Part shown: positions 312 through 46,076 of the stretch, piece after piece
How positions within the stretch are numbered: the first letter of the stretch is position 1
Layout of the letters: the number at the start of each line of letters is the position of its first letter
DNA from: an uncultured Ruminococcus sp.
Lineage (GTDB): Bacteria; Bacillota; Clostridia; Oscillospirales; CAG-272
Length of the DNA stretch: 64,000 nt
NCBI GenBank assembly: GCA_964621755.1
Contig: CAZUPI010000004.1
Coordinates: 10,821 to 74,820 of the forward strand
Reading direction: 5' to 3'
Notes under the pieces: model-generated
The model's database searches: none
What the model saw: only the letters and a program-made list of their open reading frames with translations
What the model was told of the DNA's origin: nothing
Translations under genes and position numbers: made by a program

Positions 312-323
312 GGGGGCGGCGGG

Positions 324-3276: not shown

Positions 3277-3365
3277 TACCGCGCCGAAATCCCCTGGACC
3301 CTGCGGATGTGTTCCGGGCAGAAGTGGCGCTTCGCGGACAGATCGAAAGGTTTGTATGAATTCCA

Positions 3366-18264: not shown

Positions 18265-19248
18265 ATGTTAAAAGTAGCAATGCTCTCGAAGTGGCATGTT
18301 CATGCCGGCGGTTACGCCAACTTCATCAAAAATTGCGGAAAGTGCGAAATTGTAGCCGTATGGGACGATAATACCGCACGCGGCGAGAGCTGGGCGAAGG
18401 AGCTCGGATGCGAATTCATCCCCTGCCTCGATACGCTCCTCGCGAGAGACGATATCCAAGCGGTTATCTGCGACGCACCGACGACAGCGCATCACGATAT
18501 CCTCGTGAAGGCCGCAAGGGCGGGAAAGCACATCTTCACCGAAAAGGCGCTCTGCCCGACAGTTGCCGAATGTCTCGACGTGAAGAAGGCCATTGAGGAA
18601 GCCGGCGTCACCTTCGTTATCAGCTATCCGCAGAGAGGCAGACCGTGCGTACAGTTCGCAAAGCGCATGATAGATGAGGGCGCGTTTGGAGATGTGACCC
18701 TCGTTCGTACCCGTGACGCGCACTCCGGCGTATCCGGAAACTGGCTCCCGGATTATTGGTTCGAAAAGAAGGACGCTGCCGGCGGTGCGATGATGGACCT
18801 CGGCTGCCATCCGATGTATCTGCTCGCTTACTTCCTCGGCAAGCCGAGGAGAGTGACCGGTATGTTCACCTCGCCTTACGGTAAGCCGGTTGACGAGAAC
18901 GCGGTTGCGATCGCAGAGTTCGCGGGCGGCGCGCTCGGCGTAGCAGAAACTGGATTCGACTCTCACAACTCGCCGCAGACCATCGAAATCTACGGCACAA
19001 AAGGCTCGATGATTGCGCACGGGGAGGATGTGCAGTTCTCCAGCCAGAAGCTCGGCGGCATCGTCGGCGGATTCATCAGGCCTGACCTCCCGCACCCGAA
19101 AAAGTCTCCGCTGGAGCAGTTTGTTGATGCGGTTTCCGAAGGCAAAGGCTCACCGGAAGGGCTCGGCATAGACGACGCAATCGCCCTCACAGAGCTTCTC
19201 GAAAACGCTTACAAGGGCGACGAGAGCAATACGATTGTGAAAATATAA
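18265..19248 (+). CDS. Gfo/Idh/MocA family oxidoreductase
   Basis: GGGAGG RBS. 327 aa. The N-terminal NAD-binding fold (MLKVAMLSKWHVHAGGYA) and the EKA...-containing region (HIFTEKALCP) are typical of this family. Confidence 0.8.
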   Translation: MLKVAMLSKWHVHAGGYANFIKNCGKCEIVAVWDDNTARGESWAKELGCEFIPCLDTLLARDDIQAVICDAPTTAHHDILVKAARAGKHIFTEKALCPTVAECLDVKKAIEEAGVTFVISYPQRGRPCVQFAKRMIDEGAFGDVTLVRTRDAHSGVSGNWLPDYWFEKKDAAGGAMMDLGCHPMYLLAYFLGKPRRVTGMFTSPYGKPVDENAVAIAEFAGGALGVAETGFDSHNSPQTIEIYGTKGSMIAHGEDVQFSSQKLGGIVGGFIRPDLPHPKKSPLEQFVDAVSEGKGSPEGLGIDDAIALTELLENAYKGDESNTIVKI

Positions 19249-25331: not shown

Positions 25332-26840
25332 ATGAAATTCAAGCATATTCCGCCGTTTGCCGCGCTCGTTTTTGCGACGATACTTACGTTTCAGGCGACA
25401 TCGTGCGGTTTTATTATAGTCAATGACATGGCAGCACAGAGTGCCAGTGAGACCGACGCCGCTTCCGAAACCGAGGGAGACGCTGCCGAACCGTTCACCG
25501 GGACGGCATACACGAAGTACGCGGGGGAAGATATGTATACGCAGTCGCGCCGATACTTGGCGGAGCTGCCGGAGCGTGACTATGATGGGGCGGTATTTTT
25601 CATTACCACCCCATCGAAGGACTATATTTCCCCCGACAACACGGATACGACGGTGAATAAACTTGTGGTCGAACGGAACGCCGATGTAGAGGAGCAGTTT
25701 GACGTGACCATTATCACCTCTGTTGTGGAGGCGTCGACTATGCTGTCCGAGCTGACGCAGTGCATCGCGGCGGGCTCGTACTACAGCGATCTTTTGATGA
25801 TACCGGTGTACATGGTTGGGCAGTTCCGCAGCGCCGAGACCCTGATCAACATGCGCACTCTGCCGTTTTTCGATATCGAGCAGCCGTATTTCAATGCTGA
25901 ATCGTCCGACATGACCTCGGGCGGCTACTCGACGTATGGTGTGGCAGGGGACGCGTCGATTGCGCCGTCGTCGTTTTCCGCGGTGTTCATGAACAAGACG
26001 ATACTGGAAGAAGCCGGTGTGGACACGCCGACGATTTATAAGTCGGTGATAGAGGGAACGTGGACATGGGACGACCTACTCGGCTGCGCGGAGGCGGTCA
26101 AGACGATAAACGGCAGCCGTGGGGCAGCGGGGCTGAACGAATACTACACCATCACCGCGCAGAACACGGCTGACAGGCTGCCGGACCTTGTATTCAAATC
26201 GGGCGGCAACAACTACATCCTGGCGGGAAAGCGCACCGTCCCGGCTATCGGGTACTCGGTGAAGTCGTCGCAGGCGACGATGAACGTCCTTGCCTCGATT
26301 TACAACGACAGTCACGCCATAACGGACTCGTCAGCGGGCGCGATAAACTGCTTCTCGGCAGGAGAGTCCGCATTCTTGGTGGATTACCTGTACGTTATGT
26401 CGTGGATGATCAACGCGTCAGCGGACTGGGGCGTTCTTCCGCTGCCGAAGGGTGACGAAAACGACGAGTATCGCACGTTGATATCAAACACAGAGCTGAT
26501 TTTTGCGGTGCCGAAAAATCATACGAACGGTGAGTTCCCGGCAATTATCCTATCTGCGCTGAACGCAGCGTCATACGGCTACATCTATGATGAATACGTC
26601 GACTACCACATGATTCACGTACTTCGCGACAACGATTCCGTCAACATGCTGGACTTGATTCTCGATACAGCATCGTTCGACTTCGCCCTCGCCTTTGGAA
26701 ATGCGTACCCAACCATAGCCGCAGCTACCTACCGCCTCATCCGCGACTGCGCCGCTACAAATAACCTCGCTGATTATTTCACCGACCGGAAGACAACGGC
26801 AACTGAGACGCTGAAAGAATATTTCCCGCTGAAGCCTTAA
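25332..26840 (+). CDS. extracellular solute-binding-protein-like lipoprotein (about 500 aa), orphan
   Basis: Lipobox LTFQATSCG. Overall architecture and blocks (DYDG.., ..ERN..V...F.V.I) are shared with the 35011..36483 paralogue. No permease or ATPase gene is adjacent. Confidence 0.65.
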   Translation: MKFKHIPPFAALVFATILTFQATSCGFIIVNDMAAQSASETDAASETEGDAAEPFTGTAYTKYAGEDMYTQSRRYLAELPERDYDGAVFFITTPSKDYISPDNTDTTVNKLVVERNADVEEQFDVTIITSVVEASTMLSELTQCIAAGSYYSDLLMIPVYMVGQFRSAETLINMRTLPFFDIEQPYFNAESSDMTSGGYSTYGVAGDASIAPSSFSAVFMNKTILEEAGVDTPTIYKSVIEGTWTWDDLLGCAEAVKTINGSRGAAGLNEYYTITAQNTADRLPDLVFKSGGNNYILAGKRTVPAIGYSVKSSQATMNVLASIYNDSHAITDSSAGAINCFSAGESAFLVDYLYVMSWMINASADWGVLPLPKGDENDEYRTLISNTELIFAVPKNHTNGEFPAIILSALNAASYGYIYDEYVDYHMIHVLRDNDSVNMLDLILDTASFDFALAFGNAYPTIAAATYRLIRDCAATNNLADYFTDRKTTATETLKEYFPLKP

Positions 26841-26850
26841 AGAAAAGGAA

Positions 26851-26892
26851 GGCGTTAGGGGAACACTTTTTCAAAAGTGTCCCCCTAACGCC
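26851..26892. repeat. palindromic hairpin (family member R4)
   Basis: GGCGTTAGGGGAACACTTTT-TC-AAAAGTGTCCCCCTAACGCC, a 20-bp stem with one mismatch, 11 nt after the stop at 26840. Confidence 0.8.
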
Positions 26893-26915
26893 TCCACATT
26901 TCGCAGAAAAACATC

Positions 26916-26944
26916 TTGTTAAATCTATTGTTTCGTGATATAAT
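26916..26944 (+). promoter_or_regulatory. sigma-A type promoter for the cytochrome-c cluster (TTGTTA-17-TGA-TATAAT)
   Basis: TTGTTA at 26916-26921, a 17-nt spacer ending in TGA (extended -10), and TATAAT at 26939-26944. It lies about 58 nt upstream of ATG 27002. Confidence 0.55.
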
Positions 26945-27001
26945 GAAAATAAGAATGTATTGTAAAAAGACCAATGGCTAAATTGGAAAAGGTGGAAGCG
27001 C

Positions 27002-27691
27002 ATGAAAAAACGAAAAATTCAGCTCTATGATGCGGTGTGCGCGGCTCTTCTTCTGATAACGTTGTTTTTCCTTGTACTCACCGTGAAGTTTTCCACAGGA
27101 AGTTCGGTCAACTTTAACGGTGCGGTCACGACGGCTGTGCTGGCATTTGGCGGCGTTCTCGCGTTCGGTTCGCTGTTTGCGCGGCGGCTGTCCGGCGGTG
27201 CGGTGAAGAAGACCGGATTTTATCTTGCTCATGCGGGGGTTGTTTTGATTCTTGTGGGATTTGCACTGTTCCAGCTATTCGGAGATACAGTGACTGCGGC
27301 AGTTCCGGTGGGCGGCGACACTTTTTATTCGCAAATCCAGCGGGAATCGGGGGAGATGTGCGACCTTGGCTTCAACTTCCGTGTGGACGATTTTGAAATC
27401 GAGACTTATGAGGATGGTTCGGACAAGCAGTATTATGCGGGTCTGGCCTTTGCGGATGAAGTTACGCTGCGGGTAGACACGTCTGAGTTGTCGGTGAATC
27501 ACACGGTACGCCGCGGCGGGTGGAAAATCTACCTTATGAATTATAGCAGCGGGTACGTAAGTCTGATGTTCCGCCGCGACCCGGGCGAGTATGTTGTGAA
27601 GGCGGGGATTGCAGCGCTGATTGCGGGATGCGTTCTCTCCCTCATCGCCGGAAACGGGGTGCGCAAGAAGGAGGAGAACGCCGATGCGTGA
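27002..27691 (+). CDS. miniature ResB/CcsB-like cytochrome c biogenesis protein
   Basis: 229 aa. TM helices flank a short extracytoplasmic loop. Blocks resembling the ResB family: GFYLAHAGVVLILVGFAL (conserved His in a TM), FNFRVDDFEIETYEDGSDKQYYAGLAF, LSVNHTVRRGGWKIYLMNYS and MFRRDPGEYVVKAGIAALIAG. The stop overlaps the next start (ATGCGTGA). Confidence 0.65.
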   Translation: MKKRKIQLYDAVCAALLLITLFFLVLTVKFSTGSSVNFNGAVTTAVLAFGGVLAFGSLFARRLSGGAVKKTGFYLAHAGVVLILVGFALFQLFGDTVTAAVPVGGDTFYSQIQRESGEMCDLGFNFRVDDFEIETYEDGSDKQYYAGLAFADEVTLRVDTSELSVNHTVRRGGWKIYLMNYSSGYVSLMFRRDPGEYVVKAGIAALIAGCVLSLIAGNGVRKKEENADA

Positions 27692-28457
27692 CGTTATTTT
27701 GCGCGGAATTATTCTTTTGGCCACTCTTTTGTACGGCGGGGCGCTTGTGCTGTATCTGCGGCGGAAGGCCAAAGTCGGCGGTATCGTCTGGATTTTGGCG
27801 GAGGCTTTGTCGGTCGTCCTTGTGGTGAACAATTTTGTGGTCAACGGATACGTGCCGTTTGTGAGCATGTATCAGCTTTTGACCTTTGCGGCGGCGCTTT
27901 TTGGTGTGGTGTATTGTTATATTGCGCGTCTGCGGAATGGAAAATGGGCGGCGCCCTACTTTATCGGGTGTTCGCTCGTGGCGTCGCTTGGGCTGTGCTT
28001 TATGGACATTCACGCGGTATGGCATTTTCCGCCGGCGCTTCGGTCGGTATGGTTCGTTCCCCACATTCTGGCGTACGTGATATCTTACATCATGGCGGCA
28101 GCGGCGTTTGCCATGACGGTCACGAAATTTTTCGCAAAAGGCGAACGAAGAAAACAGCTCGACGGCGGAATTTACGACTGCGTATGCGTACTGTTCCCGT
28201 TCATGTCGATGGGGATGCTGTTCGGCGCGGTATGGGCGAACGAGGTCTGGGGTGCATTCTGGAGCTGGGACATCAAGGAATGCTGGTCCCTTGTGACATG
28301 GCTGACCTTTATGACATGGCTCCACGTCCGCCGCAGTCCCAGATTCTCGAGATTCAAGGACGTCCTCCTCGTCGCCGGATTTGCATTCGTGATTGTGACA
28401 TTCTTTTTTGTGAATCTCATGAATGCGGCGGGGGGATCTATGCATGCGTATAACTGA
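27684..28457 (+). CDS. ccsA: CcsA/ResC-like cytochrome c assembly (haem-handling) protein
   Basis: AGGAGGAG RBS lies 8 nt before ATG 27684. It is polytopic. The WWD haem-handling motif reads WGAFWSWDIKECWSLVTWL, with flanking conserved His in VPHILAYV and WLHVRR. Confidence 0.8.
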   Translation: MRDVILRGIILLATLLYGGALVLYLRRKAKVGGIVWILAEALSVVLVVNNFVVNGYVPFVSMYQLLTFAAALFGVVYCYIARLRNGKWAAPYFIGCSLVASLGLCFMDIHAVWHFPPALRSVWFVPHILAYVISYIMAAAAFAMTVTKFFAKGERRKQLDGGIYDCVCVLFPFMSMGMLFGAVWANEVWGAFWSWDIKECWSLVTWLTFMTWLHVRRSPRFSRFKDVLLVAGFAFVIVTFFFVNLMNAAGGSMHAYN

Positions 28458-28597
28458 GATTTTGGGGAGTGGATGGCGCTGACATTTGGTTTGGGCTCAC
28501 TCTTCAGCCATATGAAATTATGTTCCACCCCATATAAAAGTTTTTAGAGGGGTATAACTTAACGTCTTCCCCAAAATACAACCATCAGGAGAACATT

Positions 28598-30733
28598 ATG
28601 AAATCAAAATGGAAGTTGTTGTTGGCGGCTTTGCTGTTGCCTGTGCTTGCGGCATGCGGCACAGTTGAGCGGTCGGACAACGTTGCGCCTACGCTGGAGG
28701 AGCGGATTGATGCGGAAGAATATATTTCGCCATCGTCCGTTTTTGTGGCGGAGGACGGATTTATTTATGCTGCGGATGAGACTGGCGGGCGGGTATTGAA
28801 GCTGAATCCGGACGGCAGTATTGCGGCGCAGGCTGTGCTTGAAGGCGGCGCGCACTGTATCAGGGTATACGGTGATTCGGTTTACGTCGCGCGGGGAGAG
28901 CTTGACGGGACGTTGGCGGTACTCGATGAAGATTTGCGGTTAACCGGAGAATACATAGTTGGACACACGCCGACGGATATCGAGTTTTCGGAAAGCAGAA
29001 TTTATGTTACGAACCGGTTTTCGAATACGGTTTCGGTAATTGATACGGAGTCGGGAGACATTAGAGAAATCCCTGTTGGGCGGGAGCCCATGGCGGCGGC
29101 GATTGCGAACAACAAGCTGTATGTTGCGTGCCATCTGCCCGATGATGCTGCAAACGCGGATGTTGTCAGTGCGTCGGTTTATGTTATCGATATGGCGACG
29201 GAGGCGGTGCGCACGATTGAGCTTGTCAACGGGACGGGCGGCGTGAAGGATATCGAGGCTGCGCCTGACGGAACAAGACTCTTTGTGTCCGCCGTGATTG
29301 CGCGGTATCAATATCCTACGACCCAGCTTGACGGTGCGTGGATCAACTCGAACGGATTTGCCATCATTGATGCGGAGACTGACGAGTATGTGAACACGAT
29401 TCTTCTCGATGATGTGACGCTCGGGGCGGCGTCCCCGTGGGGCATTGCTTTCGGAGGGGGAAATGTGTACTTTGCGGCGTCGGGGACAAGTGAAATCATC
29501 AGCTTTCCGCTCGACCGGCTGGATTCGCTGCTTGGCTCTGCGGCCTACCGCGGACGGGAGCTTGCGGACGAAATCGGCATTTTGAACAGCATCCGCACCC
29601 GGACCGAGATGCCGGGCGAGGGGGTACGGGATATCATGTATGCGGAGGGCAAGCTCTACTGCACGGAGTACTTCACCGGTGACCTTGCGGTGCTTGATAC
29701 TTCCGATATGACCATTGCCACCTTATCCCTTGGAGAGCAGCCGGAAGCAGATATTGTGCGCCTTGGTGAGACGTTGTGGTATGACGCGACGAAATGCTAT
29801 CAGCAATGGGAGGCTTGTGCGTCCTGCCATCCCGACGGACGTGTGGACGGCTTCAACTGGGACAACCTGAACGATGGCCTCGGTAATCCGAAATCTGCGA
29901 CCTCCATGATGTATACGCACCGCTGTCCGCCGGTTATGACGACGGGCATTCGCGCCAACGCGGAAACTGCGGTCCGTGCCGGCATGAAGTATATTCAGTT
30001 CAACACCATTGACGAGGAGTCCAACTGTGCGATTGATGAATATTTGAAATCCCTTCTTCCGGTCGACTCACCAGCGCTGAACCTCGATGGGACCCTCAGC
30101 GAGGCGGCAGCGGAAGGAAAACTGCTGTTCACGGAATATGGCTGTGTGACTTGTCATCCCGCACCCTTGTACACGGACCTTGAGTATCACACCTCTCCGA
30201 TTCTGGGGGAGGATGGCGGATGGGAAAACCGCGATTTTGTAACGCCGACCCTCGTCGAAGTTTGGAGAAGCGCGCCGTACATGTACAACGGCTCGGCTCT
30301 TACTCTTGAGGATGCGGTGAGACATTTTGTCCCCGAAGGAACTTCGGAGGAGAAGATTGAGAAGCTGGCCGAGTTCGTCCGTTCTATCGGCAGTTCCGGT
30401 GAGATTTACGGGGTCGAGCAGCTTTATTCCGTAGGCGCGGACGGAGGCGAAGTGCAGGGAAGACCTGTGGAATATACGCGTATCAGCGGATTTACCGTTC
30501 GCTGTCAGAGTGAGGATGCGCCCGCGTGCAAAGCAATTCTGACGCTGACGGGAGATGACGGGCAAGTTTCCTATGAGACCAATATCGGAACTGTGCCGTA
30601 CAATACGGCGGTGCGTGTGACCGTTGACGTGGACTTGTATGCACAGCCTGGCGGCGAGGTCCGCCTTGCGCTGGTCGACAAAAAGGGCAATCCGCTGGCG
30701 TCCGAGTACGTTCTGACAGTCAAGGAAAGCTGA
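28598..30733 (+). CDS. lipoprotein: YVTN-type beta-propeller fused to di-haem cytochrome c peroxidase (CCP/MauG)-like domain
   Basis: AGGAGA RBS. Lipobox LLPVLAACG. Propeller repeats include IYVTNRFSNTVSVIDTESG, KLYVACH and RLFVSAV. Two haem-c motifs are present, CASCH and CVTCH. The CCP-like block reads FVTPTLVEVWRSAPYMYNGSALTLEDAVRHF. Confidence 0.75.
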   Translation: MKSKWKLLLAALLLPVLAACGTVERSDNVAPTLEERIDAEEYISPSSVFVAEDGFIYAADETGGRVLKLNPDGSIAAQAVLEGGAHCIRVYGDSVYVARGELDGTLAVLDEDLRLTGEYIVGHTPTDIEFSESRIYVTNRFSNTVSVIDTESGDIREIPVGREPMAAAIANNKLYVACHLPDDAANADVVSASVYVIDMATEAVRTIELVNGTGGVKDIEAAPDGTRLFVSAVIARYQYPTTQLDGAWINSNGFAIIDAETDEYVNTILLDDVTLGAASPWGIAFGGGNVYFAASGTSEIISFPLDRLDSLLGSAAYRGRELADEIGILNSIRTRTEMPGEGVRDIMYAEGKLYCTEYFTGDLAVLDTSDMTIATLSLGEQPEADIVRLGETLWYDATKCYQQWEACASCHPDGRVDGFNWDNLNDGLGNPKSATSMMYTHRCPPVMTTGIRANAETAVRAGMKYIQFNTIDEESNCAIDEYLKSLLPVDSPALNLDGTLSEAAAEGKLLFTEYGCVTCHPAPLYTDLEYHTSPILGEDGGWENRDFVTPTLVEVWRSAPYMYNGSALTLEDAVRHFVPEGTSEEKIEKLAEFVRSIGSSGEIYGVEQLYSVGADGGEVQGRPVEYTRISGFTVRCQSEDAPACKAILTLTGDDGQVSYETNIGTVPYNTAVRVTVDVDLYAQPGGEVRLALVDKKGNPLASEYVLTVKES

Positions 30734-30749
30734 GGAGGGATTCTATATT

Positions 30750-33700
30750 ATGAAGAAAACGATTCAAATTCTGTCCCTTATCCTAACGCTTGCGATGCTC
30801 TGCAGCGCGGTGGTGATTTTTGCGGCAGGTGACAAGCTGTCCTTCTCTTTGTCGAGCGAAGCGGTGCTGGTGAACACCTATGAAGCCGGCGAGAATGCCG
30901 ATGTGATTGGCAGGCTGTATGAGGAAACGCCGTATTATATTGTGGTTCGGCACCGGCAGCTCGGCGCGTCGCATTACGCTTATACAGAAGCGCTCGCGGA
31001 AGACCTCGGTCAGGACAACGCGGACCCGGAGGGCGGGGAAGCGGTCTTCAATCCCGGATCGGAGCTTGTGCTTGTGACAATTGTGAAGGACGGCGACACG
31101 TACTCCACTTATGAAGACGTGCTTCTGTCCTCGAAAAAAGGCGTCATCCGCGACCCGGATGTGTCTGCGGACGGGACCAAAGTCCTGTTTTCGTGGAAGC
31201 AGCAGAGCACGGACGACTATCATCTCTACGAAATGACCCTTCAGAACCGGGAAATCAGGCAGCTCACTTTCGGCTCCGGCGTCGCCGATACCGAAGGAAA
31301 ATACCTGTCGGACGGCTCGATTATTTTCAGCTCCTCAAGGGATATCCAGACTGTGGACTGCTGGATAACTCCCGTATCGAACCTATATAAGTGCAGTGCA
31401 GACGGAACGGATATCATCCGGCTCGGCTACGACCAGGTCCACACCTCTTACCCGACCGTGACCTCGGACGGGCGAATCATCTACACCAGATGGGACTACA
31501 ACGACCGCACGCAGATGTGGATTCAGTCGGTATTCCAGATGTTCGAGGACGGCACCAACCAGACCGAGCTGTATGGCAACAATTCGGATTTCCCGACGTC
31601 TCTTCTGCACACGCGCGAGGTGCCGGGGCATCCGGGACTGTATCTTTCTATCGCCTCCGGACATCACGTTTATCAACACGGCAAACTGGTGCTGATAGAC
31701 ACGTCGGTCGACAGAAACAGCAGCGACGCGGTGGAATTTGTTTTCAGCGACGGCACCCGGAAGGAAAATAGCGTCGACACCTTCGGGCAGTCCGGCAGGC
31801 AGTACAAATACCCTTACGCGTTTTCGGACGACTTGTTCCTCTACTCGGCAGTGGACAATTACACCGGTGTGAGTGCGGAATTTTCCATTTATGCTTATGA
31901 CAGAACGACTGATACGGAGGTTGAGCTGGTGACGGGCACAAAGGGAATCGGCGCATCGCAGATTGTTCCGGTCTACACCCGCGACCTGTTCACCCGCCCC
32001 AGCATGGTCAACTATGCTTCGGAAACCGGAACGTTCTACGTATCAAACGTGTATGAAGGGGAGGCAATGGAGGGCGTTGAAGTCGGCTCCGTGCAGTATT
32101 TGCGGGTTGTTGAGCTGGAATTCCGCTCCTCCGCAATAGGGGCTACGGTCGCAGTTGGCTCGGGCTCCGCTGACCCGTTTTCCCCTATTGCAACGGGAAA
32201 TGGCTCGTGGGACGTCAAAACCGTGCTTGGCGTGGCGCCGGTTGAGGAAGACGGGAGCGCGCTGTTCAAAGCGCCCGCGAATACGCCGCTGTTCTTCCAG
32301 CTGCTCGACGAAAACGGATGCGTCGTTCAAACCATGCGTTCTTGGACGACTCTCATGCCAAACGAGACCTTCTCCTGTGTGGGCTGCCATGAGGATAAAA
32401 ACATCGCTCCCACGGTCAGCGGGACGGTCACCATGGCTATGAAAAAGGGTGTGGTTGAAATCGAACCGGACCTGTGGATGACCGACGAAACGTATGACCC
32501 GTATACGGACGCGGTGGGCTTCTCGTTCCTTGAGGAAGTGCAGCCGATACTGGATAAGAACTGCATCGTCTGCCACTCCGACACCGACGAAGCCTACTCC
32601 CTGATAAGCGCACGCGCGGCAGCAGGATACGACACCACCCCCGCGGACGTTATTCTGGCCGAGGATGCAGTATGGCACTACACGACCACAGCACCAGCCG
32701 CCGACTGGCTGACCGACTTTACACCGGACTCTGCCTCACACGCGCCCTTTGCCGACGGCGAGACCGAGCCATACGAACACAATACCGTGTGGACCTCCGG
32801 GGAGCTTTGGGCGCGGACGACCTTCACCGGTACTGTTTACGACCTCAACAACTCCTCTCTGGCGTTCACGGGACAGCTTTGCGGCAAGGCGGAAATCTAC
32901 CTCAACGGCGCCCTTGTGGCGGAGGTTGAAAACAAGACGTCCGACGTCGTGAGTATTCCGGTGACTGGAGACATGCGAGAGGCATTCCTGTTTGGGGAAA
33001 ATACACTTGCGGTACACGTGACCGACGGCAAGTATTTTACCCTAGGTCTGACCTCTTTGGCGAGTGCAACAGGAGATCAGAAGTACTTTATCAGGCAGTA
33101 CGCATTGTGGGAATATATCAGAGCGAAGGATTTGTCCTATGCTCCCGACGGCTGGATCACGCTTGAAGATGATTCGACCAAATGGCAGACCGGACAGACC
33201 CCGTTCGGAGACCGCACCATTGACGGTATCGGCTATAAAACCGCATGGTCAGGGGCTGCCAACGCAATTTTCATCAGGCGCACGTTTACGGTAGACGATA
33301 TTGAAAAGTTCAAAAACTCGTCTCTTTGGACCAAAATCACGTATGACGACGGCATCAAGCTCTACATCAACGGCAAGCTGCTGTACGAAGACACGGGCTG
33401 GGTCGACAATTACGTCGAGATTGAGCTGTGTAAGGATGCGGCGGAATACCTCGTCGAGGGAGAGAACATCATTGCGATATCCCTCTGCAATACGGCGGGC
33501 GGACGACAGATAGACCTGTCCCTGTACGCATACGAAAGGGAACCGAATCAGGAGGAGGTCGAACCCCTTGACTCGTCCCGCGAATCGGCATTCTCGCTGG
33601 AAAACATCAACGTGGTCGGCTCGCGGCAGAAGAAATACTGGCCCCTGTCCTATCTTGTTCTCACCGGCTCTTATCCCAGCAGTACAAACTGGCTTGCGTC

Positions 33701-34826
33701 ACCGAACGGAGATTATGTGAATTTCCTGTCGTCGATGAGCGGCGCGGAAATCGTCGAGCCGTACTCCTTCGGTTCGTCAAAGAGCAGACTGATTGAGCTT
33801 TTGCGCAGCGGTCACGGAGACCTCACCGAAGAGGAAATCCGCACCATCGCATGTTGGATCGACCTTGTTGTCCCGGCGTACGGCGCATACGACGAGAACG
33901 TGACGTGGAGCGCCAACGACCAGCGCGAATTCGATGAAAAATCGAACAAGCGCGAATATTACGATAACCTGAATAAAGCGGTTATAGACGAAAAAGCAGG
34001 CGTGTATAACAGCGTCGGCGATGTGACGATTGAATTTTTGCGGACAAACGGTACTGTGGCGGCGACGGCGTCCGGTCAGGGCTTTGCGATACTGAACATC
34101 GACGGCACATACGTAGCAAAGGAGAGTGTGAGAATCACGCTTCCGGAGGGTGAAAAATACGTCGCGGTATGCTTGTCGTCCAAGCTGGGCGAGAGCATTG
34201 TATACTGTCCGGATGGGGTATTTGAATACAAATTCCCCACGCAGATGGGAAATATTTATCCGACCGCGCTGGATGATTCGAAGGATACCGTCTACATTGC
34301 CAACGTGATAAGCGCACGGATTCCGACGAAAGACGAGCTGACAGCGTCCCGCAACCTGGCAGAGAACGTGTACGACCTGAAGGATAACGCATCATCTTAT
34401 CCTCACGCGTCGACAAACAGCGTAGCAGACAGCGGCGCGGCGTACTACGAGGCGAGATGCGCCATCGACAGCTTCACAGCGAATACCGGGCATGGCACAT
34501 ATCCCGTTCAGTCATGGGGACCGGAAAAGGACACAATGGCAGACAACTGCCTTACCGTTGACTTTGGCCGGACGGTCAAGCTGGATGCGCTCGAAATCAT
34601 CATTCGCTGCGACTTCCCGCATGACACATGGTTCACTGGCGCCGACGTCACCTTCTCGGACGGGACAACGGAGCACATTGATCTATACAAAACGGAGTCC
34701 GCAATGGTCTTTAACCTGGGCGGCCGCGAAACCACGTCCATCAGGCTCTCCGGCTTCACCACCGCCGGTGATGCTTGGGCGGCAATCACCGAAATCCGTG
34801 CGATTGGGTCTGATATTGTAGAATAA
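30750..34826 (+). CDS. giant secreted multidomain protein: TolB/PD40-like propeller + di-haem (2x CxxCH) hydrazine-synthase-alpha-like region + tandem jelly-roll modules + discoidin (F5/8 type C)-like C-terminus
   Basis: 1358 aa with signal peptide MKKTIQILSLILTLAMLCSAVVIFAAG. PD40-like blocks: DPDVSADGTKVLFSW, YLSDGSIIFSSSR and TSDGRIIYTRWDYNDR. Haem motifs: MRSWTTLMPNETFSCVGCHEDKN and LDKNCIVCHSD. Two similar modules start at WHYTTTAP.. and WEYIRAKD... The C-terminal block reads NCLTVDFGRTVKLDALEIIIRCDF..ITEIRAIG. Confidence 0.7.
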   Translation: MKKTIQILSLILTLAMLCSAVVIFAAGDKLSFSLSSEAVLVNTYEAGENADVIGRLYEETPYYIVVRHRQLGASHYAYTEALAEDLGQDNADPEGGEAVFNPGSELVLVTIVKDGDTYSTYEDVLLSSKKGVIRDPDVSADGTKVLFSWKQQSTDDYHLYEMTLQNREIRQLTFGSGVADTEGKYLSDGSIIFSSSRDIQTVDCWITPVSNLYKCSADGTDIIRLGYDQVHTSYPTVTSDGRIIYTRWDYNDRTQMWIQSVFQMFEDGTNQTELYGNNSDFPTSLLHTREVPGHPGLYLSIASGHHVYQHGKLVLIDTSVDRNSSDAVEFVFSDGTRKENSVDTFGQSGRQYKYPYAFSDDLFLYSAVDNYTGVSAEFSIYAYDRTTDTEVELVTGTKGIGASQIVPVYTRDLFTRPSMVNYASETGTFYVSNVYEGEAMEGVEVGSVQYLRVVELEFRSSAIGATVAVGSGSADPFSPIATGNGSWDVKTVLGVAPVEEDGSALFKAPANTPLFFQLLDENGCVVQTMRSWTTLMPNETFSCVGCHEDKNIAPTVSGTVTMAMKKGVVEIEPDLWMTDETYDPYTDAVGFSFLEEVQPILDKNCIVCHSDTDEAYSLISARAAAGYDTTPADVILAEDAVWHYTTTAPAADWLTDFTPDSASHAPFADGETEPYEHNTVWTSGELWARTTFTGTVYDLNNSSLAFTGQLCGKAEIYLNGALVAEVENKTSDVVSIPVTGDMREAFLFGENTLAVHVTDGKYFTLGLTSLASATGDQKYFIRQYALWEYIRAKDLSYAPDGWITLEDDSTKWQTGQTPFGDRTIDGIGYKTAWSGAANAIFIRRTFTVDDIEKFKNSSLWTKITYDDGIKLYINGKLLYEDTGWVDNYVEIELCKDAAEYLVEGENIIAISLCNTAGGRQIDLSLYAYEREPNQEEVEPLDSSRESAFSLENINVVGSRQKKYWPLSYLVLTGSYPSSTNWLASPNGDYVNFLSSMSGAEIVEPYSFGSSKSRLIELLRSGHGDLTEEEIRTIACWIDLVVPAYGAYDENVTWSANDQREFDEKSNKREYYDNLNKAVIDEKAGVYNSVGDVTIEFLRTNGTVAATASGQGFAILNIDGTYVAKESVRITLPEGEKYVAVCLSSKLGESIVYCPDGVFEYKFPTQMGNIYPTALDDSKDTVYIANVISARIPTKDELTASRNLAENVYDLKDNASSYPHASTNSVADSGAAYYEARCAIDSFTANTGHGTYPVQSWGPEKDTMADNCLTVDFGRTVKLDALEIIIRCDFPHDTWFTGADVTFSDGTTEHIDLYKTESAMVFNLGGRETTSIRLSGFTTAGDAWAAITEIRAIGSDIVE

Positions 34827-34830
34827 TAAT

Positions 34831-34864
34831 ATAGGGGGAAACTTTTCGGAAAGTTTCCCCCTAT
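34831..34864. repeat. palindromic hairpin (family member R5)
   Basis: ATAGGGGGAAACTTT-TCGG-AAAGTTTCCCCCTAT, a perfect 15-bp stem, 5 nt after the stop at 34826. Confidence 0.8.
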
Positions 34865-34891
34865 ATTTTATTTTATTCATGTGAGTTGGCC

Positions 34892-34922
34892 GGGGAGATG
34901 CTTTTTGAAAAAAGCACCTCCC
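34892..34922. repeat. palindromic hairpin (family member R6)
   Basis: GGGGAGATGCTTTTTGAAAAAAGCACCTCCC. It is near-identical to R7 at 37844 and lies between two convergent genes. Confidence 0.7.
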
Positions 34923-35010
34923 GGACCCTTCCGCAAAAACTTTTAAACAAAGTACCCTGATTAAAATTTTAAAAAAGGGTTCGGGTAGAACATATCCCCT
35001 TCAAAAATGA

Positions 35011-36483
35011 TTATCCACCAATTCCCAGTGCTTCGATGGCCTTTTCAATTGTTTTTGAGAAGGAGCGCTCGTATCTGGCAGCGGCGGAGGCGTACTGGCC
35101 GTCTTTTAAGCCGGCGTTATATGCTACGATTGGGGAGCTTACGTTGAAGGCGTAGCTGAGGTCGTAGGCGCGTTTTGTAATGAGGTCTTTGAGGAGCGCG
35201 GCGCTTTCACGGTCGCGGGTACCTTTACCGATTACCGCTTTTTCGATGTAGACGTCGAGCACGTTGTCGTATGTGTCGGCTGCAAGAGCTTCGATGATGG
35301 TCGCCAGACGTTCATCGTTGTCGCAGTCAGAGGGGATGATGATGGTAAACGGATTCTGGATGTATACCATGCCGTCGGTGTTCTCGGCGAGTGACGGGTA
35401 TGCGATGATGCCGTAGTCATCCTCTTTGTCACGAAGGTTACGGAAGTCGCCCATCAGACGGCTGTAGAACAAAACGCTTCCTTCTTTGAAGAGGTTTCTG
35501 GTTTCATCATTTCGTCCGACCAGCGAGTAGTTTGTGTTATTGATGATTTTGTTCATCCAGTCGCCGACCGCCATGACGTTTTCGTCGGTAATATTCAAGA
35601 CATAGGTATTTGCAGACTCATCAAAGACTATCAGACGCAGGTTTGACGAGTACAGGCTCGGCAGGTATTCAAAATCACGGCCCGCCCAGCCGAAAATGTC
35701 GTGGGCTTCGTCCATCTTGCCGTCGCCGTTCTGGTCAACCGCAACTTGAGTCATCATGTTGTACATGGCGTCAAGCGTCCACTTTCCGGCGGTATACAGC
35801 TCGTACGGTGTGTCCGCAATGTTGTTGTCCTCAAGTAAGTCAGCGTTGTAGAAAAGGAGAGCCATTGATTCGTAGTGGTCGAAGCTGATGTCACAGTGTC
35901 CGTAATAGAGCTTGCCGTTGATGGTCAGAGTTTCCTGGGAACCCTTATCCCAATAGGGTTTTGTCAGATCAATCACCGGCATGTCAGAGATTGCCTTCAC
36001 GTAGTTCTGGGATATCAAATCCATACATTCCTGAAGGAGTGCGTAGCCAAATCCGACGTCCCCGGTTCCTGCTGTTACAGAATTTTTGATGAGGCTGACT
36101 GCACCGGTGGTGTTTTCTTCAATTACAACATTGAACTTGTCCATTACACGGACATTTCGGTCATAAATGGCGTCATTGAACGCGTCCCCTGTCAGCTCTT
36201 CCGTTGTGAAAGCGCTGAAATACTCCTCGCTGAGTCCGTTGTTTGCGATGTGCAGCGTCCAGCCGTCGTAGTCGACTGCGGCAATTTCATCTGCATAGTG
36301 GGTTTGACCGTCATCTTCCTCTGCAATTTGGGTCTCGGTGGATGCCGTATCATCGGCAGTGACGGTTGTCGGAACGCTCGTTTTATCTTCAGCGCTGTTT
36401 TCTGTGGAGTCTGAGCATGATGCCGTCATGAGCATGAGCAGAAGCGCTATAAAGATCGCTGTTCCCTTTTTGAAGCTATTCAT
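35011..36483 (-). CDS. extracellular solute-binding-protein-like lipoprotein (about 490 aa), orphan paralogue
   Basis: AGGAGAG RBS before ATG 36483. Lipobox LMLMTASCS. Distant paralogue of 25332..26840 (shared blocks DYDGW, IYDRNVRVMDKFNVVI, PYWDK). No transporter genes are adjacent. Confidence 0.65.
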   Translation of the reverse strand: MNSFKKGTAIFIALLLMLMTASCSDSTENSAEDKTSVPTTVTADDTASTETQIAEEDDGQTHYADEIAAVDYDGWTLHIANNGLSEEYFSAFTTEELTGDAFNDAIYDRNVRVMDKFNVVIEENTTGAVSLIKNSVTAGTGDVGFGYALLQECMDLISQNYVKAISDMPVIDLTKPYWDKGSQETLTINGKLYYGHCDISFDHYESMALLFYNADLLEDNNIADTPYELYTAGKWTLDAMYNMMTQVAVDQNGDGKMDEAHDIFGWAGRDFEYLPSLYSSNLRLIVFDESANTYVLNITDENVMAVGDWMNKIINNTNYSLVGRNDETRNLFKEGSVLFYSRLMGDFRNLRDKEDDYGIIAYPSLAENTDGMVYIQNPFTIIIPSDCDNDERLATIIEALAADTYDNVLDVYIEKAVIGKGTRDRESAALLKDLITKRAYDLSYAFNVSSPIVAYNAGLKDGQYASAAARYERSFSKTIEKAIEALGIGG

Positions 36484-36633
36484 TTTTCTCTCCTGTGTTT
36501 GACCTTTGTTGAAAGATGTCCTAAGTATACCATAATTCCGGAAAATATGCAATATTTTTTTAGAAATGCGACCAATTTACGCGTAAAATTTAAGTAAAGC
36601 TTAAGAAAAACGTACCTTATTTAAAAAAAATTC

Positions 36634-36720: not shown

Positions 36721-37719
36721 ATGAAAAAGACAATATCCATTGTCATGGCAATGCTTCTTGCAGCGGTGACCGCAGTGTCCGCAGGTGCTGCAACATTTAC
36801 CGACTTTGACTCATATGAAAAGTTTGAAGAAGGTGGAAACCCTGTCTACGCCTTCGAGGACCCCGCAGACTACTGGGACGGCGAATGGAGTGGCGGTGGT
36901 GACAATGGCGACGAGCAGACCACAGAAAACCGGGACGGCGTTGGTTTTATGGGTTCAAAGGGTCTGGTAGTATCTTCGTCCGGGACCGCAAACGTAGGTC
37001 TTTATCTGTTCGCAACAGCTGACAATAAGATCCCGACCGACTATACCGGCGCCGCATACCTGCGCGTATGGTGCGATTTTACAAATATTGAATTTAGAAA
37101 AGCTAATTTCGGTGTGACCGACAGTACATACTCTCTGTTTTCAACCGACGAAGTTGATGGGGCATGGGAGTGCAAATTCTTCTACTCAGAAGATGGCGTC
37201 AACTGGAGCGAGTATCTGCACGGCAGTGACGGATGTTTCGGCGACGCACAGGATTCGGCAATCGCAGGCTTAAAGGGATGGTTCGCATTCCCGGTTGCTG
37301 ACTTCACCATTCGCAGCAATGCAAACTGGGAAGCATACGATGAGCTCACACCGGCTAATATAGCAGATGTAAGCGGCGTATACCTGTTCTGGGACTACTC
37401 TGACAACGGTGATTATGCAGGTCAGACATTCGTGCTGGACAATGTTGAATTTGTTGCGGATTACAAGGTATTCGATTACGCAATAACAGACACGGCGGAA
37501 GAAGCAGCTCCTGCAGAAGAAGCGGCTCCCGTTGAGGAAACTCCTGCAGAAGAGGCGGCTCCTGTTGAAGAAGTGGTAGCTCCTGTAGAGGAAGTTGCAG
37601 CTCCCGTTGAGGAAGTAGTAGTTGCAACAGCGCCGCAGACCTTTGACCTCGGCGTTATCGCAGCAATTTCCGCAGTCGTTTCGGCAGCTGGATTTGCAGT
37701 AAGCAAGAAGAGAAAATAA
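36721..37719 (+). CDS. cell-surface protein: signal peptide, jelly-roll/CBM-like domain, acidic Pro-rich repeat linker, C-terminal hydrophobic anchor with KKRK tail
   Basis: AGGAGG RBS before ATG 36721. Signal peptide MKKTISIVMAMLLAAVTAVSAGA. Linker EEAAPAEEAAPVEETPAEEAAPVEEVVAPVEEVAAPVEEVV. The C-terminus reads TAPQTFDLGVIAAISAVVSAAGFAVSKKRK. Confidence 0.7.
   Translation: MKKTISIVMAMLLAAVTAVSAGAATFTDFDSYEKFEEGGNPVYAFEDPADYWDGEWSGGGDNGDEQTTENRDGVGFMGSKGLVVSSSGTANVGLYLFATADNKIPTDYTGAAYLRVWCDFTNIEFRKANFGVTDSTYSLFSTDEVDGAWECKFFYSEDGVNWSEYLHGSDGCFGDAQDSAIAGLKGWFAFPVADFTIRSNANWEAYDELTPANIADVSGVYLFWDYSDNGDYAGQTFVLDNVEFVADYKVFDYAITDTAEEAAPAEEAAPVEETPAEEAAPVEEVVAPVEEVAAPVEEVVVATAPQTFDLGVIAAISAVVSAAGFAVSKKRK
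37498..37626 (+). repeat. imperfect tandem repeat (15-21-nt units, GAAGAAGCGGCTCCYGTT-like) encoding the (E-E-A/V-A-P-V/A)n linker
   Basis: Seven consecutive related units are visible in the DNA: GAAGAAGCAGCTCCTGCA, GAAGAAGCGGCTCCCGTT, GAGGAAACTCCTGCA, GAAGAGGCGGCTCCTGTT, GAAGAAGTGGTAGCTCCTGTA, GAGGAAGTTGCAGCTCCCGTT, GAGGAAGTAGTAGTT. Confidence 0.8.
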
Positions 37720-45275: not shown

Positions 45276-46076
45276 ATGAAATTTTCTGCAGCAGGCGGAT
45301 GGTGGGGGCGAGACTGGTATGAAACCGTCGAGCTCGGCGCGAGATACGGCTTTAAGGGCGTGGAACAGCTCAGCTGGCTCGGACTTGACTTCGACCGCGC
45401 GAGAAAAACACTCGAAGAAAACGGTGTAACGTCTACCGCTATCGTAATTCAGTCCGAAAATCCGGAAAATGGCAAGCTTACCGCCTGGGGACATGGCATG
45501 ACATGGGAGGATTCCCGTCAGGCGTTCATCGACTCCTTCAAGGAATCTGTGAAGGCGGCTCATGCGATGAACGTTCCGAATATCATCGCTACCACTGGAA
45601 ACGAGAGATTTGACGTTACACGCGAAGAACAGTTCGATATCTGTGTGGGTACGCTGAAGGAGCTTTCCAAGATTGCCGAAGCGGAAGGCATCATGATTAT
45701 TCTGGAACCTCTGAACGTTCTCGTAAACCACATGGGTTACTTCCTCGTCACAACGGAAGAAGCGGTCCGTATGATTAAAGCGGTTGACAGCCCGAACTGC
45801 AAGATTCTGTTCGATATCTACCATCAGCAGGTCTCTGAAGGAAACGTCATTCGCAACATCACAAACAACATTGACTTGATTGGCCACTTCCATATCGCGG
45901 ATAACCCGGGAAGACAGCAGCCCGGCACCGGCGAACTCAACTATACAAAGATCTTCGAAGCGATCCAGAAGACCGGCTACGACAGATGGCTTGCTTTCGA
46001 ATGCGGCCGTACGGTGGAGGTTCCTGACCTCGTTCGTGACATGCACGTCCTAATAGACCCGTTCTCCGATAAATAA
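45276..46076 (+). CDS. xylose-isomerase-like TIM-barrel protein (hydroxypyruvate isomerase family)
   Basis: 266 aa. Blocks GFKGVE, ILEPLN, GHFHIADNPGR..PGTGELNY and GYDRWLAFE are typical of Hyi/OtnI-like AP_endonuc_2 proteins. The antisense 270-aa ORF is rejected. Confidence 0.75.
   Translation: MKFSAAGGWWGRDWYETVELGARYGFKGVEQLSWLGLDFDRARKTLEENGVTSTAIVIQSENPENGKLTAWGHGMTWEDSRQAFIDSFKESVKAAHAMNVPNIIATTGNERFDVTREEQFDICVGTLKELSKIAEAEGIMIILEPLNVLVNHMGYFLVTTEEAVRMIKAVDSPNCKILFDIYHQQVSEGNVIRNITNNIDLIGHFHIADNPGRQQPGTGELNYTKIFEAIQKTGYDRWLAFECGRTVEVPDLVRDMHVLIDPFSDK

Follow-up and report, generated by a model that had tools for sequence, protein, structure and literature searches.

A Clostridial operon that probably couples a dedicated cytochrome c maturase to a hydrazine synthase-like tetra-haem complex

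The operon and its maturase pair

The subject of this analysis is a cassette of four co-directional genes on the + strand of contig CAZUPI010000004.1 from an uncultured Ruminococcus sp., which lies between a promoter-like site and a terminator-like hairpin in the 64-kb stretch of DNA that we analysed as a whole and refer to as the window. We consider it highly likely that these genes form one operon with two functions, namely a dedicated System II-type maturase for c-type cytochromes and a tetra-haem complex that resembles hydrazine synthase (HZS) without being a hydrazine synthase itself. The features of the cassette are collected in Table 1. A preliminary description of the same DNA had already reported the four reading frames, the promoter-like site, the strong hairpin and an overlap between the start of gene 2 and the stop of gene 1, and all of these were found again, the frames at exactly the coordinates reported and on the + strand. 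In particular, the best start codon of gene 2 is the ATG at 27684, which has GGAGG in front of it and gives a frame that overlaps the stop codon of gene 1 (27689-27691), the mechanically called reading frame beginning with TTG at 27621. The promoter-like site is, as judged by consensus match only, the best + strand site within 26500-35200, and the putative promoter, the putative terminator and the single transcript that they would delimit are all read at this consensus level. The guanine-cytosine (GC) content of the cassette is 0.53-0.55, the same as that of its flanks.

Genes 2 and 3 are separated by a spacer that folds with a minimum free energy of -35 kcal/mol. Relatives at 72% identity have approximately 15 bp in its place, neither the window nor a set of 87 loci contains a further copy of it, and it matches no Rfam family. 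The spacer could be the remnant of an insertion or, alternatively, an attenuator or processing site within the operon. At both borders of the operon (26848-26895 and 34828-34867) there are long, perfectly palindromic, GC-rich hairpins, which score as terminators on either strand and share a similar theme, GGGGGA[C/A]ACTTTT...AAAGT[G/T]TCCCCC. This loose likeness is probably what the preliminary description had called a 'repeat grammar'. The half-site AAAAGTTTTTAGAGGGG, which it had taken to be repeated, occurs once in the window even if two mismatches are allowed, and is thus not a repeated host element.

In System II, the cytochrome c synthetase consists of ResB/CcsB and ResC/CcsA, fused as CcsBA in Helicobacter, and carries four canonical His residues, two of them transmembrane and two on the periplasmic side, flanking the WWD motif. 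The earlier assignment of genes 1 and 2 to these families, together with the WWD motif noted in gene 2, is borne out by the profile searches. Namely, gene 1 matches Pfam ResB with 84 bits (cutoff 24.6, E 1.3e-23), and gene 2 matches Pfam Cytochrom_C_asm with 89.7 bits (cutoff 29.9, E 2.7e-25) as well as TIGR03144 CcsB with an E-value of 8e-37, the last score being under the equivalog cutoff. An alignment of 53 homologues shows a conservation of at least 95% for the WWD motif residues W189, W193, D196, K198, E199 and W201. What is more, His residues conserved at a level of at least 95% in approximately 50 homologues from related loci are found at H77 of gene 1 and, in gene 2, at H127 before the WWD motif and at H214 and H254 after it; as read from these alignments, this set is the canonical four-His System II pattern. 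In the gene 1 family, the presumably transmembrane His77 and G79 are invariant in 51 members.

Taken together, these similarities, namely two membrane proteins encoded in overlapping frames, a WWD domain and four essential His residues, one contributed by CcsB and three by CcsA, support the identification of genes 1 and 2 as a System II (ResB/CcsB plus CcsA) maturase pair. That said, the pair departs from System II in two respects. Gene 1 is short: its ResB match is limited to positions 147-266 of the 486-position profile and, since the whole protein has only 229 residues, most of the canonical extracytoplasmic domain is missing. Given that the ResB-like partner is short throughout the family, with a median length of approximately 270 amino acids, gene 1 is best regarded as a miniaturised or truncated variant, and such a miniature ResB could define a minimal System II synthetase. 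The other respect is that the operon contains no thiol reductant of the ccdA/resA type.

Table 1. Features of the four-gene cassette, in window coordinates
Feature	Position	Strand	Remarks
Promoter-like site, sigma-70-type	26916..26944	+	TTGTTA, 17 nt, TATAAT, TG-extended -10; 10/12 consensus matches
Gene 1, miniature ResB/CcsB-like membrane protein	27002..27691	+	229 aa
Gene 2, CcsA-like haem-handling subunit	27684..28457	+	
WWD haem-binding motif of gene 2	28248..28286	+	WGAFWSWDIKECW; read from sequence
Spacer between genes 2 and 3	28458..28597	.	140 bp; long hairpin closed by 10-bp inverted repeat ATTTTGGGGA/TCCCCAAAAT
Gene 3, lipoprotein, homologue of a fused HZS beta-gamma subunit	28598..30733	+	711 aa
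Lipoprotein signal peptide	28598..28657	+	Lipobox L-A-A-C (Cys20); read from sequence
HZS-beta-like seven-bladed YVTN beta-propeller	28715..29737	+	Residues ~40-380
Invariant blade-6 insertion loop	29303..29353	+	R-Y-x-Y-P-T-T-Q-L-D-G-x-W-I-N, residues 236-252
HZS-gamma-like / CCP-MauG-like di-haem domain	29744..30385	+	Residues ~383-596
Haem motif CASCH	29816..29830	+	C407-H411; HZS haem gamma-I equivalent; aligns to gamma C102-H106
Haem motif CVTCH	30143..30157	+	C516-H520; HZS haem gamma-II equivalent; invariant; aligns to gamma C225-H229
C-terminal beta-sandwich of gene 3	30407..30718	+	Residues ~604-707; all-beta in the AlphaFold2 model, pLDDT 85-95
Gene 4, secreted HZS-alpha-like di-haem protein	30750..34826	+	1358 aa
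Sec-type signal peptide	30750..30827	+	~26 residues; read from sequence
TolB/PD40-like beta-propeller	31056..32084	+	Residues ~103-445; hhalign to HZS-alpha propeller; TIGR02800 TolB 2e-10
HZS_alpha middle domain	32085..32393	+	Residues 446-548, ending in haem motif 1
Haem motif CVGCH	32376..32390	+	C543-H547; HZS haem alpha-I equivalent; aligns to alpha C583-H587
Haem motif CIVCH	32562..32576	+	C605-H609, within EVQPILDKNCIVCH; HZS haem alpha-II equivalent
Two galactose-binding-like jelly-roll modules	32730..33536	+	Residues ~661-929; probably inside haem alpha-II domain
Helical segment	33609..33995	+	Residues ~954-1082; nearly invariant H1022
C-terminal DUF7402 / F5-8-type-C-like module	34422..34751	+	Residues 1225-1334
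Intrinsic-terminator-like hairpin	34828..34867	+	18-bp stem, then T-run; bidirectional; closes operon

The two client proteins and hydrazine synthase

The two large proteins had been described as a lipoprotein (gene 3) and a secreted protein (gene 4), both with beta-propeller repeats and with two CxxCH haem attachment motifs each, and this is indeed how they appear: gene 3 has a lipobox ending in Cys20 and a YVTN-type propeller, and gene 4 a hydrophobic signal peptide and a TolB/PD40-like propeller. The count of CxxCH motifs is exactly two in gene 3 and exactly two in gene 4, with none in any other protein of the window (all other de-nested open reading frames of at least 80 amino acids), and it is the same in all 119 beta-gamma-like homologues that start with Met and in 111 of the 120 alpha-like ones, which means that the motifs are no coincidence. 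A lipobox is found in 38 of the 119 gene 3 homologues, the remainder having other N-terminal anchors, and 119 of the 120 gene 4 homologues have a hydrophobic stretch of 12 or more residues near the N-terminus.

The alpha-beta-gamma structure of HZS from Kuenenia stuttgartiensis, 5C2V, was reportedly solved by Dietl et al. in 2015, and it is to the chains of this structure that both proteins are closest. Gene 3 matches the NCBIfam models hydrazine_BC, gamma and beta with E-values of 1.6e-19, 6e-14 and 1.4e-11, respectively, and as a single sequence it finds 5c2v_C (gamma, 1.9e-11) and 5c2v_B (beta, 3.5e-11) in the PDB. With a family profile, the E-values become 7.9e-23 for HZS-gamma and 4.6e-24 for HZS-beta, as compared with 5e-13 for the best classical cytochrome c peroxidase (CCP). 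The AlphaFold2 model of gene 3, calculated from the family alignment, has a predicted local distance difference test (pLDDT) score of 83.4, and its top Foldseek match in the PDB is 5c2v_B, with an E-value of 4.1e-18 and a template modelling (TM) score of 0.82 normalised to the target, which is 6 orders of magnitude ahead of generic propellers. In hhalign, residues 1-366 pair end to end with HZS-beta 4-375 (probability 99.4%, E 3.9e-21) and residues 387-594 with HZS-gamma 82-350 (probability 99.6%, E 3.5e-24), and the propeller as such matches the TIGR02276 YVTN repeat with 6e-19. CASCH, the first haem motif, is invariant in 46 of 46 sequences. The C-terminal beta-sandwich lies beyond the end of the HZS-gamma alignment and is absent from anammox HZS-gamma.

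The loop at residues 236-252, inserted in blade 6 of the gene 3 propeller, is more strongly conserved than any other motif of the Clostridial family, with Y237, P240, T241, Q243, D245, W248, I249 and N252 as invariant columns, and it aligns to HZS-beta ...PKNWLPVCEAENGQVF.... Its residues Q243 and D245 stand opposite the two Glu residues of the HZS-beta sequence CEAEN (the numbering of the HZS-beta translation is offset from that of the published betaGlu253), while residues 238-247 have a pLDDT below 50, as expected for a partner-dependent loop. The corresponding loop of HZS-beta has a conserved Glu, part of a Mg site. In 5C2V, it is this blade-6 insertion that reaches into the alpha-gamma inter-subunit tunnel by which the two active sites are joined (Dietl et al. 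2015, summarised in PMC12758564).

Gene 4 matches NCBIfam hydrazine_alpha with an E-value of 2.5e-13 and 5c2v_A, the alpha chain, with 3.5e-7 as a single sequence, over a region that covers both haem motifs, and with 2e-13 if the family profile is used. Residues 103-610 pair with HZS-alpha 83-690 in hhalign (probability 99.2%, E 1e-19, 458 columns). The AlphaFold2 model from the family alignment (pLDDT 83.3) has 5c2v_A as its top Foldseek match in the PDB, with an E-value of 3.9e-23 over 677 aligned columns, 12 orders of magnitude ahead of generic propellers. What is more, the middle domain covers the complete Pfam profile HZS_alpha (PF18582, positions 1-98 of 98) with 111.7 bits (cutoff 26.6, E 2.5e-32). 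CVGCH is invariant in 42 of 42 sequences, and CIVCH, which aligns to alpha DIQPILDAKCAMCH at C685-H689, is at least 90% conserved. The propeller is the most conserved part of the cassette, showing 49-62% identity where beta-gamma shows 39-49%, and its invariant polar residues include R247-W-D-Y-x-D-R253, D228-Q-V-H231, H305-H306 and D203-C204. Cys204 (31359-31361) is the lone invariant Cys of this exported propeller, in the motif T-V-D-C-W, and aligns to a Glu of HZS-alpha and not to the Zn-site residue alphaCys303; it could be a haem ligand, a metal ligand or the site of a crosslink.

The C-terminal half of gene 4 has additional modules. The jelly-roll region has weak Pfam matches to BetaGal_ABD2 and GH2_N2, both modules are beta-sandwiches in the AlphaFold2 model, and profile matches were obtained to the 9-O-acetylesterase 7kmm, the rhamnosidase 3w5m and the N-terminal domain of the GH2 enzyme 3gm8. 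The C-terminal module matches DUF7402 with a Pfam E-value of 0.013, and homologues, including distant alpha-like proteins, show DUF7402 and F5_F8_type_C clearly. Between these parts lies the helical segment, which probably completes the haem alpha-II domain, although the evidence is suggestive only. In particular, LTEEEIRTIACWIDLV (residues 1025-1040) is colinear with HZS-alpha LTQDERYAIVEWIDLG (776-791), which follows just after the distal His772, and H1022 is located three residues before LTEEEIRTIACWIDLV. In hhalign, this region in isolation pairs weakly (P 4.4e-4, probability 34%; reversed control 0.28), and a phmmer search of the PDB with segment 940-1075 gave no meaningful match. On account of this weak, colinear pairing, H1022 is suggested, tentatively, as a candidate distal (sixth) ligand of the second alpha haem. 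If the pairing is right, approximately 330 residues, including the two jelly rolls, would consequently be inserted inside the alpha-II haem domain.

As judged from these alignments and models, gene 3 is a fused beta-gamma homologue, and gene 4 an alpha subunit homologue, of HZS. The preliminary description had listed HZS_alpha and CCP_MauG among the models to be searched, and both do match, but the HZS-like beta-gamma/alpha complex as such had not been recognised. For comparison, genuine anammox hzs loci were taken from metagenome contigs, including the Kuenenia genes (locus L088), and the published numbering was confirmed on the HZS translations for alpha C303, H587, Y591 and H772 and for gamma C102, H106, H144, C165 and D168. 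In HZS, the pocket of haem gamma-I features a third covalent bond, from gammaCys165, together with gammaHis144 and gammaAsp168. Haem alpha-I has Tyr591 as an axial ligand and a Zn site from His587 and Cys303, and haem alpha-II is a bis-His haem with His772 as the distal ligand. The cassette resembles anammox HZS in that the homology extends to all three subunits and over essentially the whole of each, in that beta/gamma come before alpha, and in that the two haem sites of gamma and the two of alpha correspond in position (C407 and C516 align to gamma 102 and 225, and C543 and C605 to alpha 583 and 685). Moreover, the beta blade-6 loop is present, and haem alpha-II has probably kept its distal-His segment (H1022 ... 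WIDL). A fusion of beta and gamma is found in Ca. Scalindua as well (PMC12758564).

On the other hand, the residues that are special to the HZS haems gamma-I and alpha-I are absent from the cassette. Namely, gammaCys165, the origin of the third thioether, and gammaAsp168 fall inside an 8-residue deletion of gene 3; opposite gammaHis144 stands T448, in a variable column that follows the invariant M447; alphaCys303 aligns to N278 of gene 4; and no equivalent of alphaTyr591 is seen after CVGCH, where the sequence reads CVGCHEDKN and the alignment has a gap and variable columns. For this reason, the complex is most likely not a hydrazine synthase. The NCBIfam equivalog models for alpha, beta, gamma and BC score 48.9, 44.1, 51.7 and 69.5 bits, with cutoffs of 800, 560, 625 and 1250, respectively. 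Unlike anammox HZS, the cassette lacks the 34-residue insert of HZS-gamma and has the putative alpha-II insertion of approximately 330 residues, the extra C-terminal alpha modules and the beta-gamma beta-sandwich. What is more, its anchoring is that of a Gram-positive lipoprotein and not inside an anammoxosome, it has a private System II maturase, and its hosts are gut and rumen Clostridia. No gene for a hydroxylamine oxidoreductase (HAO)-type octahaem protein or hydrazine dehydrogenase (HDH) was found in the window, in the annotated neighbourhoods examined or among the recurrent neighbours, whereas genuine hzs loci show multihaem neighbours.

The gamma-like domain is also of the same two-haem fold class as the di-haem CCP/MauG/MbnH/RoxA superfamily, with Pfam CCP_MauG at threshold (25.9 bits, cutoff 25.6) and with alignments to solved CCPs, the best being to 3o5c. 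It differs from CCP/MauG in that the inter-haem Trp of FWDGR is missing, gene 3 having V-M-T-T-G-I-R with M447 and T449 invariant, and in that it is closer to HZS-gamma, fused to a propeller and obligatorily paired with an alpha-like di-haem protein.

Distribution and relatives

One genome per GTDB species was scanned, and 170 stretches were found to encode a relative of the cassette, of which the best 80, representing 79 distinct loci, were analysed. Among 8000 scored candidates there are more than 800 beta-gamma homologues and more than 2000 alpha homologues. All 79 loci come from Clostridia-type metagenome-assembled genomes (MAGs) of gut, rumen or biogas origin, in line with the Clostridia-type host named earlier, and the host groups include Oscillospiraceae, Acutalibacteraceae, Lachnospiraceae, Christensenellaceae, Ca. 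Howiella and Faecousia. What appears to be a surface-exposed enzyme is widespread in livestock and human gut MAGs. Alpha is located directly 3' of beta-gamma in all 60 loci with room downstream, and CcsA immediately precedes the client pair in 50 of the 57 loci with room upstream. Both counts speak for the dedicated maturase module that had been proposed. In one further locus, CcsA is found elsewhere. In fermentative Clostridia, c-type cytochromes are rare, and the maturation system here appears to serve solely one enzyme. Some alpha and beta-gamma homologues carry Dockerin_1, Big_2, F5_F8_type_C or GH2_N modules. In one locus (L048, CAYXID010000012.1, from an uncultured Ruminococcus sp.), a second, divergent alpha-like gene lies at 316-4845 (-) besides the pair, and the ResB/CcsA genes are located downstream of alpha and not upstream.

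In relatives at 72-80% identity, the cassette sits between the same SleB-like, SBP and CarD genes, other neighbours being variable, and for this reason, as well as for its uniform GC content, we regard it as native to the genome. This conclusion had been reached before; the synteny carries it, and the 'repeat grammar' argument that had been offered for it does not hold. The neighbourhood was further surveyed with Pfam, covering 145 genes immediately next to the cassette in 62 loci, the negative results referring to the 25 most frequent families. AraC-type regulators alone clearly recur (18 cases), and they are followed by MarR and ArsR regulators, GFO/IDH/MocA oxidoreductases and xylose-isomerase-like TIM barrels. 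Cytochromes, quinol-linked enzymes, thioredoxin/DsbD and haem-uptake families are not among the top 25. That no respiratory partner lies nearby, as the preliminary description had remarked, is true of the window and of these top families alike.

An exhaustive search with alpha residues 1-640 returned 4939 representative proteins (clusters at 50% identity) at E <= 1e-3 and 1116 at E <= 1e-30, and 123 of the 138 new, more distant alpha-like representatives have exactly two CxxCH motifs. In a second tier of alpha proteins, at 40-50% identity, the same core is found behind DUF1559, Laminin_G_3, PKD or M23 modules, often with discoidin/DUF7402 tails. The cassette thus shares a core of propeller, middle domain and two CxxCH motifs with the PF18582 'HZS_alpha domain-containing proteins' of Planctomycetes-Verrucomicrobia-Chlamydiae (PVC) and other bacteria, which, unlike the cassette, have other N-terminal modules and, in the three contexts inspected, neither a beta-gamma gene nor a maturase. 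In these contexts (loci L115, L116/L117 and L118), the neighbours of the stand-alone alpha genes encode GH31/NPCBM, GH123, GH127, sulfotransferase, GFO/IDH/MocA, FGGY kinase and glucosamine-6-P-isomerase-like proteins, and one of the alpha-like proteins has an N-terminal DUF1559 module.

To our knowledge, HZS was long thought to have no relatives. In December 2025, Hagglund et al. described a few distant, non-anammox pairs of HZS homologues, assigned to clades I-IV, in RefSeq genomes of cultured Planctomycetota and Desulfobacterota, and of Acidobacteriota and Opitutus, in which key HZS residues are not conserved; Clostridia are absent from the main text, a few Oscillospirales proteins (CAG-272, RGIG1993) appearing with E-values of ~1e-14 in a supplementary BLAST table (PMC12758564). 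The cassette is similar to these pairs in its co-localised alpha-like and fused beta-gamma-like genes and in that the catalytic residues of HZS are not conserved, and similar to clade IV in having no FG-GAP/CRTAC1 gene. It differs from clades I-III in gene order (alpha comes first there, and beta-gamma then alpha in Clostridia), in having no extra N-terminal haems of the c554 type and in having no Trp at the gammaH144 position. Furthermore, haem alpha-II and its probable distal His are kept in the Clostridial branch, unlike in clades II and III, which are without alpha-II, and clade I, which is without the His (PMC12758564). The mini-CcsB/CcsA dedicated to the Clostridial pair is a further difference. 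The Gram-positive Clostridial clade is not among the HZS-like pairs analysed in December 2025, and its distinctive features are the dedicated maturase and the putative insertion of approximately 330 residues. The locus reveals a much larger, unanalysed HZS-like branch in Gram-positive gut and rumen fermenters than the pairs of PMC12758564, and this branch, in which the genes are ordered as in anammox bacteria and the ligation of haem alpha-II is probably preserved, should be useful for reconstructing the origin of HZS. Our literature search found no paper linking hydrazine synthase with dockerins. It also found nothing on this system for gut Clostridia or Oscillospiraceae in connection with c-type cytochromes and their biogenesis, or for cellulosomes in connection with dockerin-bearing cytochromes.

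Proposed function, alternatives and surrounding genes

In the mechanism that we propose, genes 1 and 2 would carry haem across the membrane and link it, at the outer side, to the CxxCH sites of genes 3 and 4, four in all. Gene 3 would contribute a lipid-anchored HZS-beta-type propeller with an HZS-gamma-type (CCP/MauG-like) di-haem domain, and gene 4 a secreted protein of the HZS-alpha type, with its propeller, the middle domain with haem 1 and a second haem domain, the latter being interrupted by the putative insertion with its two galactose-binding-like modules and followed by the DUF7402/discoidin-like module. By analogy with 5C2V, the gamma-I-type and alpha-I-type haems could be two separate active sites joined by an internal tunnel, into which the invariant beta loop 236-252 would project, while the gamma-II and alpha-II haems would relay electrons. 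As regards the substrate, we suggest, with more doubt than confidence, that a small diffusible reactive N/O species such as H2O2, NO, nitrite or hydroxylamine is processed. Such a species could be activated at the CCP-like gamma-I haem. The alpha-I haem, under the alpha propeller, would then receive the product or the oxidising equivalents and would be the site at which a second substrate is converted. The sugar-binding-like modules, and the dockerins in some relatives, would serve solely to place the enzyme on glycans of the cell wall, the host or plants. An activity on NO, nitrite, hydroxylamine, peroxide or glycans, if true, would bear on rumen nitrogen metabolism, oxidative-stress ecology or fibre breakdown. 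The most far-reaching version, which we regard as unlikely, is that hundreds of uncultured gut and rumen Clostridia have an HZS-derived, tunnel-linked tetra-haem enzyme at their surface, and on cellulosomes via dockerins in some of them, that performs chemistry new to fermentative Firmicutes, namely the extracellular conversion of N-oxides or hydroxylamine, possibly N-N or N-O bond chemistry, or a haem-driven oxidative attack on plant or host glycans under near-anoxic conditions. If N-N or N-O bond chemistry were true, it would have a connection with the ancestral activity that gave rise to hydrazine synthase.

Several observations weigh against this picture and should be kept in mind. Sequence identity to HZS is low, 17-31%, and the assembly of genes 3 and 4 at the cell surface into one tetra-haem enzyme, like the two-site tunnel, is projected from 5C2V only. 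As regards the guessed substrate, no genes or regulators of N-oxide or peroxide stress recur in the neighbour survey, nor was an electron donor for the complex identified. What is more, CcsA was not found within 10 kb in 6 of the 57 loci with room upstream. Finally, the second-tier alpha proteins stand alone in sugar-metabolism loci, without beta-gamma or maturase (three contexts), and since these are loci of glycan utilisation, the alpha core may have an activity of its own, possibly a carbohydrate-related one.

How do other explanations compare? Peroxide handling and redox chemistry on a polysaccharide surface had been suggested in the preliminary description, and both are guesses. It is conceivable, if rather unlikely, that the cassette is a di-haem system of the CCP/MauG type, in which the gamma-like domain would reduce or use H2O2 and protect a strict anaerobe at oxic interfaces, gene 4 being its electron-donating or substrate partner. 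The CCP_MauG score just above the cutoff, weaker matches to MauG, MbnH, RoxA-like and CCP models and the profile matches to solved CCPs, up to 5e-13, would fit this. What is more, an oxidant-driven reaction of the MauG type needs no external respiratory partner, which agrees with the absence of partners near the locus. However, the domain is much nearer to HZS-gamma than to any CCP, as both the family profile and hhalign indicate, the inter-haem Trp of FWDGR is missing, no PerR- or OxyR-type regulators recur nearby in the neighbour survey, and an obligatory alpha-like partner of 1358 residues with two more haems would be left unexplained. We likewise think it improbable that the complex is a redox enzyme directed at glycans or plant cell walls, i.e. 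a haem accessory of polysaccharide or lignocellulose breakdown and a component of the cellulosome in some species. The binding modules on gene 4 and those on homologues of both subunits point in this direction, as do the AraC-type regulators, which lead the recurrent neighbours, the GFO/IDH/MocA and xylose-isomerase-like families that come after them, and the distant stand-alone alpha-like proteins among GH31, GH123, GH127 and sulfotransferase genes, while RoxA, an extracellular polymer-cleaving member of the CCP/MauG superfamily, provides a precedent. Yet carbohydrate genes are very common in these genomes, so that co-location is weak evidence, the binding modules may merely tether the enzyme to a surface, and oxidative cleavage of polymers requires O2 or H2O2, both scarce in rumen and colon. 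Moreover, no glycoside hydrolase family is among the top 25 immediate-neighbour families, and it is for this reason that we keep the glycan-directed enzyme as a rival and not as the lead.

Another option, and a distinctly remote one, is that the four haems form an extracellular outlet through which electrons from metabolism would reach acceptors outside the cell. That a fermenter has c-type cytochromes exposed at its surface, together with a maturase for them, would suit such a role, and dockerin-bearing cytochromes are reportedly found in anaerobic methanotrophic (ANME) archaea (PMC9012536). Against it, there are two haems per very large protein, placed in enzyme-like propeller domains and not packed as multihaem wires, the most frequent neighbour families of the 62 loci include neither a membrane dehydrogenase for quinol or NADH nor another cytochrome, and the closest solved relative is an enzyme and not a conduit. 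A genuine hydrazine synthase, with anammox-type N-N bond formation in Clostridia, has in its favour the three homologous subunits, the four haems and the beta/gamma-then-alpha order known from anammox bacteria. It was ruled out by the missing active-site residues (gammaC165, gammaD168 and alphaY591 absent, gammaH144 replaced by Thr and alphaC303 by Asn), as well as by NCBIfam HZS scores of 49-70 bits, far below the cutoffs of 560-1250, with no HDH or HAO-type gene in the window or the annotated neighbourhoods, and we attach very little probability to it. Least probable of all is that the cluster is a chimera of the assembly or was acquired very recently from a different phylum. Such an origin would explain c-type cytochromes in a fermentative Clostridial genome, where they are unusual, and would agree with HZS-like proteins having so far been discussed for Planctomycetota and Desulfobacterota (PMC12758564). 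The chimera was rejected on the synteny of relatives and on the GC content, which matches that of the flanks, and the 170 stretches in species-representative genomes, with all 79 distinct loci in Clostridia-type MAGs, likewise speak against such an origin.

As for the genes around the cassette, it is bracketed by two solute-binding lipoproteins of approximately 500 amino acids each, SBP_bac_1 and SBP_bac_8, at 25332-26840 (+) and 35011-36552 (-), with no adjacent permease genes; both are kept at 72-74% identity beside the cassette in the closest relatives (L008, L016 and L057) and not in distant ones. Further off in the window, at a distance of 8-16 kb, there are genes for a GFO/IDH/MocA oxidoreductase, a xylose-isomerase-like TIM barrel and a GH127 protein, at 18265-19248, 45276-46076 and 50288-52180 (-). 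In other genomes, members of these three families are repeatedly found next to the cassette or to alpha-like genes. Finally, 36721-37719 (+) encodes a secreted protein of 332 amino acids without a Pfam match, which has acidic Pro/Glu/Ala repeats (AEEAAPVEE...) and a C-terminal hydrophobic anchor, and a longer relative of it, with the same tail, is found among the neighbours from related loci.

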